Shown here: positions 13,934 through 19,737 of the stretch, in pieces
Layout: every line of letters starts with the position of its first letter
How positions within the stretch are numbered: the first letter of the stretch is position 1
NCBI GenBank assembly: GCA_964648855.1
Contig: CAZYLT010000002.1
Location: forward strand, 180,001-212,000
Source: an uncultured archaeon
GTDB lineage: Archaea > Asgardarchaeota > Thorarchaeia > Thorarchaeales > Thorarchaeaceae
Length of the DNA: 32,000 nt
Direction: 5' to 3'
Notes under the pieces: generated by a model
Databases searched by the model: none
Told to the model about the DNA's origin: nothing
Seen by the model: the letters and a program-made list of their open reading frames with translations, nothing else
Made by a program: the position numbers and the translations under genes

Positions 13934-15223
13934 TCAATCCTCTGGGTTCAAATGAATAGATTCGGTTTCTTGTCTTGGTCTGACAAGAACATTCTCACCA
14001 ATATCCTTCTCGACTATGGTTCCTACTCCAGTCCTTGCACCTGTAGCAATGACAACTCCAGGGGAGATTGAAGTACCTATACCAGTCTTCACATTATCCG
14101 CAATAATTGCTCCGAGTTTCCGTCTGCCCGAATCCACTCTTCGTTCTTTAACGGTCACTTTTACAGACTCATCATCATGACGGAGGTTTGCAGTGATAGT
14201 TCCAGCTCCAAAATTTGAATATCTGCCGATTATAGAATCACCCACATAAGAGAGATGCCCTACGTTGGTATCCTCCATTATTATCGAATTCTTGATTTCT
14301 ACAGCACTGCCTATCTTGACTCGTGCAACCAACACAGTATGCGCCCGAATATAGCAATTTGGACCCACAACACACTCCGGACCAACATAAACAGGCCCTT
14401 CGATGTATGCGCCACTCTTGATATGGGCACTGGGATCAATCACCACACTGCCCTTTACGGTGGCTCCATCTTCAATCTTACCAGCAATCTGACGAACTGC
14501 TCCCTTCATAATCAGCTCATTAGCCTCAAGAAGGTCCCAGGGTTTCCCCACATCAATCCACCAATTCTCAATGGTGAAGGCTCCTACTTCACCCATGTGA
14601 ACGAGCATCATAATTGAATCCGTTATCTCATACTCCCCGCGGTCAGACTTCTTGGTCTTTGCTATTGCATCCCACAATTCTGGGCCAGCAGCATAGACAC
14701 CTGCATTAACCAGATTACTAACCATCTGGTCTTCTCTCGGTTTCTCTATCAAGTCCTTGACCATGTTATCCTCGACAGAAACCACTCCATAGGCAGAGGG
14801 GTCTTCTACGGGAAAGACCGAGAGAGTGAAGCTTGCTTCGCCCTTCTTATGTTGTTTTATCAGCTTCTCAAAGGTTTCAGGCCCCACCAGAACATCTCCG
14901 TACATTAGAAGGATGTCATCTTTTCCGGCGAACTTTTGGGCATAGCCGGCCGCATGGGCTGTCCCCATTCTCTTGTCCTGATGGATATATGAAATCTCCA
15001 TTTTTCCCCAGTCATGAGCATCAATGGCTTGTTTTAGGGCTTGACCCTGGTATCCAAATACGATCAGGACCTCCTCTATGCGGGCGTTTCTCAAGGCATC
15101 CAATGTATGGAAAATCAGTGGTTTCCCTGCAATTGGTAATAGATGTTTAGGGCGATTATCTGAAAGAGGTCGCATTCTAGTTGAATCGCCTGCCGCAAGG
15201 ATTGCTGCCTTCTTCATGGTCAT
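13934..15223 (-). CDS. glmU: Archaeal bifunctional sugar-1-phosphate nucleotidylyltransferase/acetyltransferase (GlmU-type)
   Basis: ILAAG.STRMRPL...RPK.LLPIAGKP, GTAHA, YGD, EKP, RGEYEITD, hexapeptide repeats, HLSYVGDS, GRRKLGA. Confidence 0.92.
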   Translation of the reverse strand: MTMKKAAILAAGDSTRMRPLSDNRPKHLLPIAGKPLIFHTLDALRNARIEEVLIVFGYQGQALKQAIDAHDWGKMEISYIHQDKRMGTAHAAGYAQKFAGKDDILLMYGDVLVGPETFEKLIKQHKKGEASFTLSVFPVEDPSAYGVVSVEDNMVKDLIEKPREDQMVSNLVNAGVYAAGPELWDAIAKTKKSDRGEYEITDSIMMLVHMGEVGAFTIENWWIDVGKPWDLLEANELIMKGAVRQIAGKIEDGATVKGSVVIDPSAHIKSGAYIEGPVYVGPECVVGPNCYIRAHTVLVARVKIGSAVEIKNSIIMEDTNVGHLSYVGDSIIGRYSNFGAGTITANLRHDDESVKVTVKERRVDSGRRKLGAIIADNVKTGIGTSISPGVVIATGARTGVGTIVEKDIGENVLVRPRQETESIHLNPED

Positions 15224-15380
15224 TCAAGTCCTCTGAGGGACGCCACAATATAGAGTTTGTTGACTGCTGTTGTTGCTGTGACAGAAACATTAAATTGCCT
15301 AAATCTAACGAACGCCGATTAAATCCAATGCCCCTTTTAATGCGCAGTATAAGACCGCGATAAAGCCGTCCCATCCTGCG

Positions 15381-15454
15381 ATAAGTTAATAAGGGTTGTC
15401 GTAGCGTTAATCATGTGTTGGTTAAGATATCTCGGGGAGAGAATCATCAACCAA
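15381..15454 (+). promoter_or_regulatory. Putative BRE/TATA promoter and 5' leader hairpin of the winged-helix cluster
   Basis: TTAATAA at 15386-15392; about 25 nt downstream a stem begins (TTGGTT 15418-23 / AACCAA 15449-54), followed by an A-rich leader. Confidence 0.45.
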
Positions 15455-15488
15455 GCAAAAATTACACAAAAATCAAGGTAGAAACGCG

Positions 15489-15734
15489 ATGATGAGCGAA
15501 AAGGAACTCATTCAAGAATTGAAGAATCTTAAGCTGACCAAGAGTCAGAAGATTGTTCTTGATATTCTACGCACTAGTGGAAAGAATGGAGTCACTCCTA
15601 AAGAGCTACTTGATGAGGTATCCTTTGCCCCGCGAACCGTTAGGTACGCACTCAGGAAACTTCTGAAGAAGAGATTAATCAAACGAGTACCATGCCTTCA
15701 AGACATGCGGCAGTACATCTATCTGCCTGCCTGA
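15489..15734 (+). CDS. Small basic winged-helix DNA-binding protein, paralog 1
   Basis: 81 aa; LTKSQK.VL.IL...G..GVT.KEL...VSFAPRTVRYALRKL...LIKR; 18 K/R versus 8 D/E. Confidence 0.88.
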   Translation: MMSEKELIQELKNLKLTKSQKIVLDILRTSGKNGVTPKELLDEVSFAPRTVRYALRKLLKKRLIKRVPCLQDMRQYIYLPA

Positions 15735-15755
15735 TAGAAAGGGGTTGAAACAAAT

Positions 15756-15974
15756 TTGGAAGACCAATTAACCAGAAGTCAGAGAGAGATCGTCAATATC
15801 CTGAGGACACGCGGCCGAAATGGCATGACCCCTAATGAGCTAATGGAACGTGTTTCCTTTGCTCCGAGAACGGTACGGCATGCCCTCCGAAAACTATTGC
15901 GGAAAGGGCTGGCTGAGAGAATACCTAATCTCTCCGATATGAGACAACACATCTACCTACCAGCAGAAAGGTGA
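15756..15974 (+). CDS. Small basic winged-helix DNA-binding protein, paralog 2
   Basis: 72 aa, TTG start; VSFAPRTVRHALRKLL and DMRQ.IYLPA shared with its neighbours. Confidence 0.85.
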   Translation: MEDQLTRSQREIVNILRTRGRNGMTPNELMERVSFAPRTVRHALRKLLRKGLAERIPNLSDMRQHIYLPAER

Positions 15975-15981
15975 TAATATT

Positions 15982-16227
15982 ATGTTAAGCAAAGAAGAAC
16001 TAGAAAATGAATTAGAAGGAAAGAAACTGACCAAGAGTCAGAGAGTTGTCCTGGACATCCTCCGTACAGACGGTAAGGATGGTATTACCCCAAAGCAACT
16101 ACTTGATGAGGTCTCTTTTGCTCCACGAACTGTCAGATACGCCCTGAGAAAGCTTCTCAAAATGAAGCTCGTCAAGAGGGTCCCATGTCTGCAAGATATG
16201 AGACAGTTCATCTATGTACCGGCATAG
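15982..16227 (+). CDS. Small winged-helix DNA-binding protein, paralog 3
   Basis: 81 aa; 62/81 identical to paralog 1 without gaps; GGTGA SD upstream. Confidence 0.88.
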   Translation: MLSKEELENELEGKKLTKSQRVVLDILRTDGKDGITPKQLLDEVSFAPRTVRYALRKLLKMKLVKRVPCLQDMRQFIYVPA

Positions 16228-16282
16228 TAGGGGCAGGCACAATGCTAGTGTCCTTACCCTCATCCCATAGGAGGTAAGACTC

Positions 16283-16966
16283 TTGCAAGAAATGAAACAA
16301 CTAGACACACTCAAGATTCTCACCGGTCAGGATGCAATCGATGCTGTGAGAGCACTAAATGACGAGAATCGTAGACAAATTCTTCATGCTCTAAGAGCTA
16401 GGAGGATGTCTACCTCAGACCTATGCGATTTTCTGTCACATCGAGATCCAGATAGGGAGTTGAAGCCACAGACAGTGCGCTATCATATTAAAGAACTGGA
16501 AAAATGCGGTTTAGTGGAGCAGGACGGTTATGAGCCTGCTGGAAATGGCGACACTCATATCATGAAAAAACTCTGGCGCGCCACAGCTGAAAGCATCTTC
16601 ATAGCTACTGGTGATATGGATAGTCTTCCTGCTAGAGAAACCTATGACTTAGACAAGACTCTTGATATCATAGGAACCATGAGGGAGTTAGGGTTAGAGC
16701 TGAATGAAGAAGAAATGAAGGCAATTGCAGACGCCTTTGTTGAGCGGGAAAAAATCTACATTAAGGGACGAACGAAAGTACAAGAATCTCTTGAAGAAGT
16801 CTGCTCGCTTGACCCAATGTTATACCTGGTCTTTCGTAAATTCCTAAGTTTAGTGCAACTAAATAACCAAGATTACGAGCAATATTGGAAAATCAGTAGA
16901 TATATCGCAGATAAACTAAGAAAAGGATATCGCCACGGAAAAGGCGACAATCCCAACGTCTACTAA
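16283..16966 (+). CDS. ArsR-like winged-helix transcriptional regulator with C-terminal helical domain
   Basis: AL.DENRRQIL..L....MS.S.L, PQTVRYHIKELEK.GLVE, K.WRATA; GGAGGT SD before TTG. Confidence 0.85.
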   Translation: MQEMKQLDTLKILTGQDAIDAVRALNDENRRQILHALRARRMSTSDLCDFLSHRDPDRELKPQTVRYHIKELEKCGLVEQDGYEPAGNGDTHIMKKLWRATAESIFIATGDMDSLPARETYDLDKTLDIIGTMRELGLELNEEEMKAIADAFVEREKIYIKGRTKVQESLEEVCSLDPMLYLVFRKFLSLVQLNNQDYEQYWKISRYIADKLRKGYRHGKGDNPNVY

Positions 16967-19304: not shown

Positions 19305-19401
19305 ACACGCACGCTTGTATTGATTGCTTCCATTAATCCTGATAATACTCAGTCTAAAAAGACTCCTACATACTCATCAAAGTATAAGGAGCCAACAATA
19401 T

Positions 19402-19737
19402 ATGACAACTAAGGAGGCCATGCCAAGTATTGAAGCAGAGCTCTATGAGCTCAGTATGCCCGGGCGTATTCTTGGGAAAGAAGTTTTAGATAATAATGCT
19501 CGCAGGATTGGTATTGTCAGAAGTATCAGAATTGCTCTTCATCCCACTAGGTCTGAACTTATTGTGAAAGGAGCAGAAGTTGAGTTCCCTGTTGATTTTG
19601 CCAAAGTCGAAGCGGTTGGAACCGTTGTACAACTAAATTCTGTAGTGAAGGATGCAGAAGAAATCGAGGTACATGATGTAATACGGCTCCAGAAAGAAGT
19701 GCTCGATGATATTCGCAGTTATCTTGGCGGAAGATAG
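19402..19737 (+). CDS. PRC-barrel-like domain protein
   Basis: ILGKEVLD.NARRIGIV..IRI, L.V and F..V.AVG.VV.L pattern. ATG 19402 preferred over the track start. Confidence 0.65.
   Translation: MTTKEAMPSIEAELYELSMPGRILGKEVLDNNARRIGIVRSIRIALHPTRSELIVKGAEVEFPVDFAKVEAVGTVVQLNSVVKDAEEIEVHDVIRLQKEVLDDIRSYLGGR

Follow-up and report, generated by a model that had tools for sequence, protein, structure and literature searches.

Introduction

Small stand-alone winged-helix proteins are common in archaea. Among the described regulators, those closest to the proteins of this study are the MarR regulators (MepR, ZitR, and MarR of E. coli; PF01047/PF12802), which comprise about 140 amino acids (aa) and in which helices 5 and 6 form the dimer and the ligand pocket. 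To our knowledge, very little is known about gene regulation and non-histone chromatin in Asgard archaea. In this study, we analysed three adjacent small winged-helix genes in a stretch of 32,000 nucleotides (nt) (GenBank assembly GCA_964648855.1, contig CAZYLT010000002.1, positions 180,001 to 212,000; hereafter called the window, with positions counted from its first letter) of an uncultured archaeon of the class Thorarchaeia, whose 3.1-Mb genome (G000) is 94.6% complete. The first of these genes is a core gene of the class, and the triplet is most likely a lineage-specific gene-number variant of this class-wide gene and not a separate system. In regard to function, we lean towards minimal MarR-type transcription regulators embedded in conserved circuits.

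Compared to the MarR regulators, the window proteins, called mini-MarR proteins in the following, revealed the same topology of the winged helix-turn-helix lobe, the best sequence and Foldseek matches, and the Asp-x-Arg motif of the wing. The end of MarR helix 1 has its counterpart in their short N-terminal helix, but with 72–81 aa they lack helices 5 and 6 and, with these, the dimer interface and the ligand pocket. A second group consists of Lrs14, Sul12a, and Sul10a from Sulfolobales together with TrmBL2 from Thermococcales, which function as regulators and also as nucleoid proteins (PMC11841832). They are likewise small, basic, effector-less winged helices with several paralogs per genome, and their folds are similar (Z 9.4–9.7). 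Lrs14, Sul12a, and Sul10a, however, dimerise through a long C-terminal helix that the mini-MarR proteins do not possess, and the group belongs to different archaeal lineages. A third group comprises single winged-helix TrmB proteins of the OxsR type from Haloferax volcanii (PMC9426492), stand-alone thiol-switch winged helices which are widespread in archaea (PMC9426492). As in the mini-MarR proteins, one conserved cysteine and no ligand domain are found, but the cysteine of OxsR is located in helix 1 at the dimer interface, while that of the mini-MarR proteins (Cys69) is located at the base of the wing. Furthermore, OxsR is a TrmB domain, and the corresponding model PF01978 was not matched by copies 1 and 3 and reached 17 bits with copy 2 (cut-off 25.6).

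Three paralogous genes in the window

The three open reading frames (ORFs) lie co-directionally behind a single promoter region, with intergenic gaps of 21 nt between copies 1 and 2 and 7 nt between copies 2 and 3. The letters A and B of the type names refer to two kinds of loci described below.

15489..15734, plus strand: copy 1 (A1 type), 81 aa, ATG start
15756..15974, plus strand: copy 2, 72 aa, TTG start
15982..16227, plus strand: copy 3 (A2 type), 81 aa, ATG start

The ORFs are genuine paralogs. A preliminary description of this DNA had reported three adjacent genes of 72–81 aa with common motifs and the same recognition helix, and our alignment confirmed both, revealing 41 invariant columns that include the stretches SFAPRTVR.ALRKLL and DMRQ.IY.PA. 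For copies 1 and 3 we obtained the same protein identity as given there (62/81, 77%), and the two DNA strings quoted for comparison were located at 15618-15650 and 16111-16143. Copies 1 and 2 are 64% identical over the common core; copy 2 lacks the first c. 11 residues, i.e., the N-terminal helix, and carries Asn for Cys69, which is the sole cysteine of copy 1, and His for Tyr53. Copies 1 and 3 differ at a proportion of 0.90 for synonymous sites (saturated) and of 0.146 for non-synonymous ones. Comparison with the sister genome G076 resulted in ratios of non-synonymous to synonymous substitution rates (dN/dS) of 0.17, 0.08, and 0.02 for copies 1, 2, and 3, respectively, the copy 3 protein being 100% identical to its counterpart at a dS of 0.26. 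Thus, all three copies are maintained by selection, and the old duplication under purifying selection that had been proposed is borne out by the saturated synonymous sites together with these ratios. Recalculated net charges were +10 (copy 1, as stated before), +7 (copy 2), and +6 (copy 3).

Fold and family assignment

Pfam and NCBIfam gave only generic winged-helix matches near or below the cut-offs, namely MarR, MarR_2, SarA/Rot, LexA_DNA_bind, and also the second winged helix of RNA_pol_Rpc34. With PF01047 (cut-off 24.6), copy 2 scored 26.3, copy 1 23.2, and copy 3 23.3. Comparison of a family profile, built from 57 members, with the PDB pointed to MepR, ZitR, and MarR at E-values of 1e-5 to 1e-2 over residues 5–75. 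The AlphaFold2 (AF2) model of copy 1 (pLDDT 87) displayed a MarR-lobe fold with a short helix (residues 4–13), three helices (18–29, 37–43, and 48–60, the third being the recognition helix), and two wing strands (64–68 and 76–80), after which the protein ends at residue 81. Foldseek retrieved the DNA-binding lobes of MepR, MarR, and ZitR as top matches of this model (TM 0.72–0.78). The wing motif D72-M-R74, found without exception in the A, B, and extra copies, corresponds to the Asp-x-Arg of MarR proteins, with QDMRQ being aligned with QDTRR of MepR. In MarR, helices 1, 5, and 6 form a domain for dimerisation and ligand binding; this domain was not found in the AF2 model, which has only a 10-residue N-terminal helix in this respect and ends at the second wing strand. 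Since the model stops at the wing without helices 5 and 6, each protein is predicted to represent the MarR DNA-binding lobe alone, and the family can be described, as modelled, as MarR-type winged helices reduced to this lobe.

A search of longer database proteins for fusion forms, weak evidence by its own account, resulted in two matches only (145 and 152 aa), both without an added domain and probably due to mis-called starts. Together with the end of the model at the wing, this agrees with the earlier statement that an effector domain is absent. In public sources, the family is already labelled as MarR family or SarA/Rot family regulators of Candidatus Thorarchaeota, and our literature searches retrieved no paper describing it.

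Several other identities were considered and rejected or disfavoured. The genome possesses its own eS25 (PF03297), which matches at 42.7 bits on contig C5, while copies 1–3 reached only 12–14 bits. A Z-alpha reading had weak PDB sequence matches (E 0.02–0.03) and Z-scores of 9.1–9.6, tied with dozens of winged helices, and the defining Asn and Pro-Pro were absent by eye. Membership in the OxsR-type thiol-switch TrmB proteins was discarded because of the PF01978 scores and the position of the cysteine given above. The missing long C-terminal helix and curated model scores far below the cut-offs speak against the Lrs14/Sul12a type, and a TFE-beta/RPC34 identity is disfavoured, as judged by the C-terminal domain, because no residues follow the wing and Cys69 is the only cysteine.

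Distribution and conservation of A1

In the class Thorarchaeia, A1 belongs to the core genes. In a survey of 87 genomes of this class, a family match (E <= 1e-10) was detected in 87/87, and a copy of the A or B type (69–100% identity) in 83; the remaining four genomes are 52–86% complete. The best matches in the phylum outside the class were about 50% identical and correspond to another paralog of about 90 aa (c. 92 aa) with a C-terminal extension. In G000 this paralog is found at C5:144933, where it has one neighbour gene in common with its relatives in other classes, and it carries Asn at the position of Cys69. Since the relatives outside the class are only about 50% identical and of this different paralog, the 81-aa subfamily is an offshoot, specific to Thorarchaeia, of a larger group of small winged helices. 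A full profile search against 1.84 billion cluster representatives revealed 650 relatives at E <= 1e-3, of which 80 remained at E <= 1e-10; almost all have lengths of 60–120 aa.

In 18/18 loci from 17 genera, i.e., all genera of the class, A1 was part of a constant gene string with the following order:

minus strand: genes for a DUF2095 protein, a radical SAM protein, and an NTP-transferase/hexapeptide protein
plus strand: A1 and an ArsR-type gene of about 225 aa
minus strand: gene for the Hef helicase-nuclease

By synteny, copy 1 is the A1 gene. The median identity of A1 to other genera is 82.7%, and that of the flanking genes is mostly 42–70% (Hef 70%, ArsR-type 56%). Copy 1 and its syntenic gene are 79–85% identical in the other genera of family f1 and about 70% in the second family (G001).

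Promoter elements

Upstream of copy 1, the following elements were identified:

15343..15359, plus strand: imperfect inverted repeat CGCAGT-N5-ACCGCG upstream of the promoter (class consensus CGCGGT-N5-ACCGCG), a candidate site for a dimeric regulator
15356..15383, plus strand: two direct half-sites YGCGAYA at a distance of 21 nt (about two turns of the helix), of which the proximal one abuts the TATA-like box
15378..15391, plus strand: GCGATAAGTTAATA, i.e., a third half-site at the position of the TFB recognition element (BRE) followed by a TATA-like box, 111 nt before the ATG of copy 1

This operator-like arrangement was kept in sequence and position in 19/19 loci of family f1, representing 16 genera. 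Its general pattern at A1 is CGCGGT-N5-ACCGCGAYA, followed after 12–13 nt by CTGCGATAnnTTAATA, so that an inverted pair of half-sites is combined with a third, direct one. The distance to the A1 start ranged from 88 to 118 nt in the 18 aligned loci and was 94 nt in G086. Within the genome of the window, GCGATAnnTTAATA occurs only once (the window copy, within 15343-15391), and YGCGAYA-N10-16-YGCGAYA had the window site as its single match; the same arrangement was found in other genera. No compensatory changes were seen between the palindrome arms across the loci, and as the arms vary in this way, a protein-binding site fits better than an RNA stem. A scan of 15100-16400 against Rfam gave only a sub-threshold chance match to a snoRNA, and a scan for sigma-70 promoters and terminators revealed nothing relevant. 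In G001 (L043, upstream of 6099), the single genome of the second family, the class-typical operator is absent, and a perfect palindrome with 11-bp arms, ATCACACAAAT-N4-ATTTGTGTGAT, is located c. 25–50 nt before the start of the only copy.

The B loci (L045-L060) display a palindrome of their own, GTGACTGT-N6-ACAGTCAC, which occupies the BRE position and adjoins the TATA-like box on its upstream side. It was clear in 9/13 loci with a neighbouring gene for a TrmB-MEDS regulator, degenerate (GTAAC-type) in the other four, and absent from 3/3 B loci without this neighbour. As the B loci are interrelated, the association is only a hint. The palindrome is a candidate operator of the TrmB-MEDS regulator. 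A genome search did not detect this palindrome in G000.

Downstream Phr-like gene

The ArsR-type gene of the A locus follows A1 in 18/18 loci and is represented in the window by:

16283..16966, plus strand: Phr/PH1932-like ArsR-type regulator, 227 aa, winged helix plus helical C-terminal domain

The 227-aa protein matched Pfam HTH_20 (E 4.5e-10), and Foldseek assigned its AF2 model (pLDDT 85) to 1uly/2cwe (PH1932; E 4e-10) and Phr (2p4w) as top structures. The winged helix of this family contains an invariant KPQTVRYH helix. Like the heat-shock-type ArsR regulators Phr and PH1932 of Thermococcales, it consists of an ArsR-type winged helix followed by a helical C-terminal domain; the global superposition, however, is poor (TM 0.32–0.37), the identity is 16–21%, and, unlike for these regulators, no link to heat-shock genes was seen at the window locus. 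In the window, the gene starts 55 nt after copy 3 and is preceded by GGAGG 8 nt before its start, while in other genera A1 and the ArsR-type gene are separated by 60–190 nt, often with a stem-loop or T-run in between. Co-transcription is therefore likely in the window but not general. Stem-loops after the A1 stop were seen in several genera (L036, L037, L028, L039, and L042), e.g., CCGACACTA.TAGCC...GGCTATTAGTTGTC, and are candidate terminators or attenuators that would set A1 apart from the regulator gene behind it.

Paralog types and origin of the triplet

The triplet was found in only 2/87 genomes of the class, G000 and G076, both of one genus, and A1 stands alone in at least six genera. 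Additional tandem copies at the A locus were restricted to these two genomes (two each) and to G007, G010, and G086 (one each). Copy 3 has the derived residues I35, M/L61, V64, and F/H76 in common with the second copies in G007, G010, and G086; the group was named A2 after these common residues had been seen. A first tree, calculated before the G086 pair was added, placed copy 3 weakly with copy 1 (support 88/74). With this pair included (84-column alignment), a tree constrained to one A2 clade had a log-likelihood 2.18 above that of the free search, with a p-value of 0.58 in the approximately unbiased test (p-AU). As the constrained tree is slightly better, a recent duplication at the genus level is not favoured, though an alignment of 84 columns cannot settle this; an old tandem duplication with losses would explain the pattern at least as well as repeated duplications. 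Copy 2 occurs in G000 and G076 only and forms a long branch inside the A/B clade. The triplet would thus have arisen from A1 via an old tandem duplication (A2, copy 3) plus a genus-specific third copy. Since it is nearly unique, the suggestion of a separate, undescribed "system" is weakened, although the family itself is real and class-wide.

The B type was identified away from the A locus in six genera and is 66–80% identical to copy 1; in most B loci, the gene is convergent with that for the TrmB-MEDS regulator of about 480 aa. Neither a B copy nor a TrmB-MEDS ortholog was found in G000. Among 19 A loci, the recognition helix (residues 48–60) did not vary at all (100%), and among 16 B loci it was conserved at 95%. 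For the wing we obtained 84–93%, and Cys69 at its base is present in 95–100% of the A and B copies. The N-terminal helix is the most variable part (50–69% in A and B loci), and it is absent from copy 2 and from the extra copy of G010. With the recognition helix constant and the N-terminal helix variable, the paralogs are alike on the DNA-reading surface and different elsewhere.

Putative function as small transcription regulators

We consider it somewhat probable that the mini-MarR proteins are minimal MarR-type transcription regulators with one common DNA specificity, embedded in conserved circuits with sensor-type regulators. The A and B types each lie behind their own conserved palindromic element and beside a sensor-type regulator, an arrangement typical of specific regulatory circuits. 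By analogy with MarR proteins, major-groove contacts would be made by the recognition helix and minor-groove contacts by Arg74 of the wing, and the conserved operator would be the site at which the operon's own products, the Phr-like regulator, or both exert control. DNA specificity would be the same for all paralogs, and their differences in the N-terminal helix and helix 1 would lead to different oligomeric states or partners. Homo- or hetero-oligomers may form via the N-terminal helix, and Cys69 in the wing, which is absent in copy 2, might serve as a thiol switch.

Several points weigh against this reading. In the genome, the operator palindrome with one degenerate position per arm has three sites, which is about the number expected by chance, degenerate half-site pairs also occur at about chance frequency, and the 9-nt half-site has 52 matches with no enrichment. 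Since these looser forms are at chance frequency, no regulon can be defined. Moreover, the A and B types possess the same helix but different palindromes, so that at least one of the sites is probably a target of the neighbouring regulator rather than of the small protein; judging from the sequences, at most one of the two types would simply bind its own element, and the A1 operator may be bound by the Phr-like regulator instead of the small proteins. The small proteins have no ligand domain, and an A1 identity of about 83% across genera, with saturated synonymous sites and above that of Hef, is unusual for a local regulator. Furthermore, VIA-align gave Z-scores of 9–11 for MarR, Fur, RPC62, TFE-alpha, Sto12a, TrmBL2, RPA32C, and Z-alpha alike, so that the fold alone does not decide on the function.

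Should the genes encode ordinary small regulators, the outcome would be a tidy annotation: a mini-MarR family present throughout the class would be defined, together with its types A1, A2, and B, its conserved operators, and its partner regulators, and the triplet would no longer mislead as a candidate for a new "system". A1 itself is of note, as it is more conserved than the adjacent repair helicase, with its recognition helix invariant in 17 genera and its promoter element kept in 16.

Alternative functions

Instead of regulating specific genes, the proteins might be architectural, a role that we regard as unlikely. As small, basic, and abundant proteins, they would coat or bend DNA largely irrespective of its sequence, and their dose would be set by gene number (one to three) and promoter. 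They are small and basic (+6 to +10) without a ligand domain, the DNA-contact surface is identical in all paralogs, and winged-helix nucleoid proteins have a precedent in Lrs14, Sul12a, and TrmBL2 (PMC11841832), with Sto12a and TrmBL2 being structural neighbours (Z 9.4–9.7). However, the C-terminal coiled-coil helix typical of Lrs14, Sul12a, and Sul10a is absent, as no helix follows the wing in the AF2 model, and a C-terminal extension was found in G000 only in the distant paralogs of c. 92 aa located elsewhere. The curated models NF040939 (Lrs14) and NF053609 (Sul12a) scored 13–17 bits (cut-off 90) and 14 bits (cut-off 150), respectively. Control by dose would be in line with the copy number differing among genera and with the placement of each paralog type under a sensor-type regulator, which looks as though its amount were what is being adjusted, but in the window the genes form a string of three to four genes and not a single-gene unit. 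In a principal component analysis of codon usage as a proxy for expression, in which axis 1 covered 7% of the variance and separated ribosomal genes loosely, copies 1, 2, and 3 were placed at the 91st, 60th, and 22nd percentile, respectively, and the proxy was uninformative. A1 is class-wide and more conserved than most of its neighbours, as would suit a chromatin protein, yet G000 encodes a histone, and a 2026 preprint has histones as the abundant chromatin proteins of the Asgard species measured, with no Thorarchaeota among them.

The preliminary description had preferred a role in chromatin, analogous to histone variants, over transcription factors. With the triplet in 2/87 genomes, paralog types behind their own palindromes and beside sensor regulators, a histone in the genome, and the MarR label, this preference is unsupported. 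Similarly doubtful is the more elaborate form of the idea, a Thorarchaeia-specific, dose-controlled architectural family alongside histones. Its subunits would have the invariant DNA surface in common, oligomerisation would be altered by exchange of the variants A1, A2, B, and the helix-less copy 2, and the level of each variant would be set by the Phr-like or TrmB-MEDS regulators. If true, this would give histone variants a winged-helix analogue in archaea closely related to eukaryotes.

We give rather little chance to the small proteins being partners or modulators that act via protein contacts with the Phr-like (A) or TrmB-MEDS (B) regulator, either in mixed complexes on the three-half-site operator or by titration. 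The linkage of A1 to the Phr-like gene in 18/18 loci and of B to TrmB-MEDS in most B loci fits such a role, but the B and TrmB-MEDS genes are convergent and hence not co-transcribed, and in many genera the gaps of 60–190 nt with stem-loops or T-runs lie between A1 and the Phr-like gene. Also in line with it are the composition of the operator (inverted pair plus third half-site), the P.TVRY motif common to the recognition helices of the Phr-like and the small proteins, and the differences between paralogs on non-DNA surfaces.

A function of A1 in basal transcription, as a reduced relative of RPC34, TFE-beta, or TFE-alpha working with RNA polymerase, is very improbable. RNA_pol_Rpc34 (PF05158) was the top Pfam match of copy 1 (hmmscan, 29.6 bits with a cut-off of 28.4; 26.2 in the genome search), the only PF05158 matches in G000 were copies 1 and 3, and 36/37 family-f1 genomes searched had a match, nearly all on A1 or B-type copies; the match, however, is borderline and restricted to model positions 78–145, i.e., one of three winged helices, and MarR Pfam models score equally well. 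Though RPC62, TFE-alpha, and a TFIIE chain are structural neighbours (Z 10–11), comparison of the profile with the PDB ranked MarR proteins (E 1e-5) far above RPC39 (E 0.08–0.4). High conservation throughout the class would suit a basal factor, but the A/B subfamily is confined to this one class, with relatives elsewhere in the phylum being only about 50% identical. Moreover, TFE-beta is defined by a C-terminal [4Fe-4S] or equivalent domain pairing with TFE-alpha (PMC7289017), and there are no residues beyond the wing, hence no C-terminal Fe-S or dimerisation domain, in the small proteins.

Further observations

In another Asgard family, PF05158 matches extended over model positions 9–135, i.e., two winged helices, as seen at L066 (G113:C70:15228-15575), G103:C217, and G215:C91. 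The Asgard frames with such matches comprise 228–761 aa and may be real RPC34/TFE-beta-like proteins.

Outside the small proteins, a winged helix of the mini-MarR family was identified at the C-terminus of an NAD kinase (E 5e-32) at L007 (G000:C3:151313-154534; minus strand, c. 1504-2295). It contains PPRTVRYAL...RDSRQGLY and is 39% identical to copy 1, so that a metabolic enzyme is combined with a DNA-binding lobe. Two larger database proteins, P0228 (541 aa) and P0249 (642 aa), matched the family profile in six and four separate stretches, respectively, and look like fused tandem arrays.

Finally, an ORF of 137 aa adjoining Hef in the window (19324-19737, plus strand) had no Pfam or NCBIfam match. 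With 74–95% identity (median 87%) in 12 genera at a constant position, it is conserved to a higher degree than any other gene nearby.

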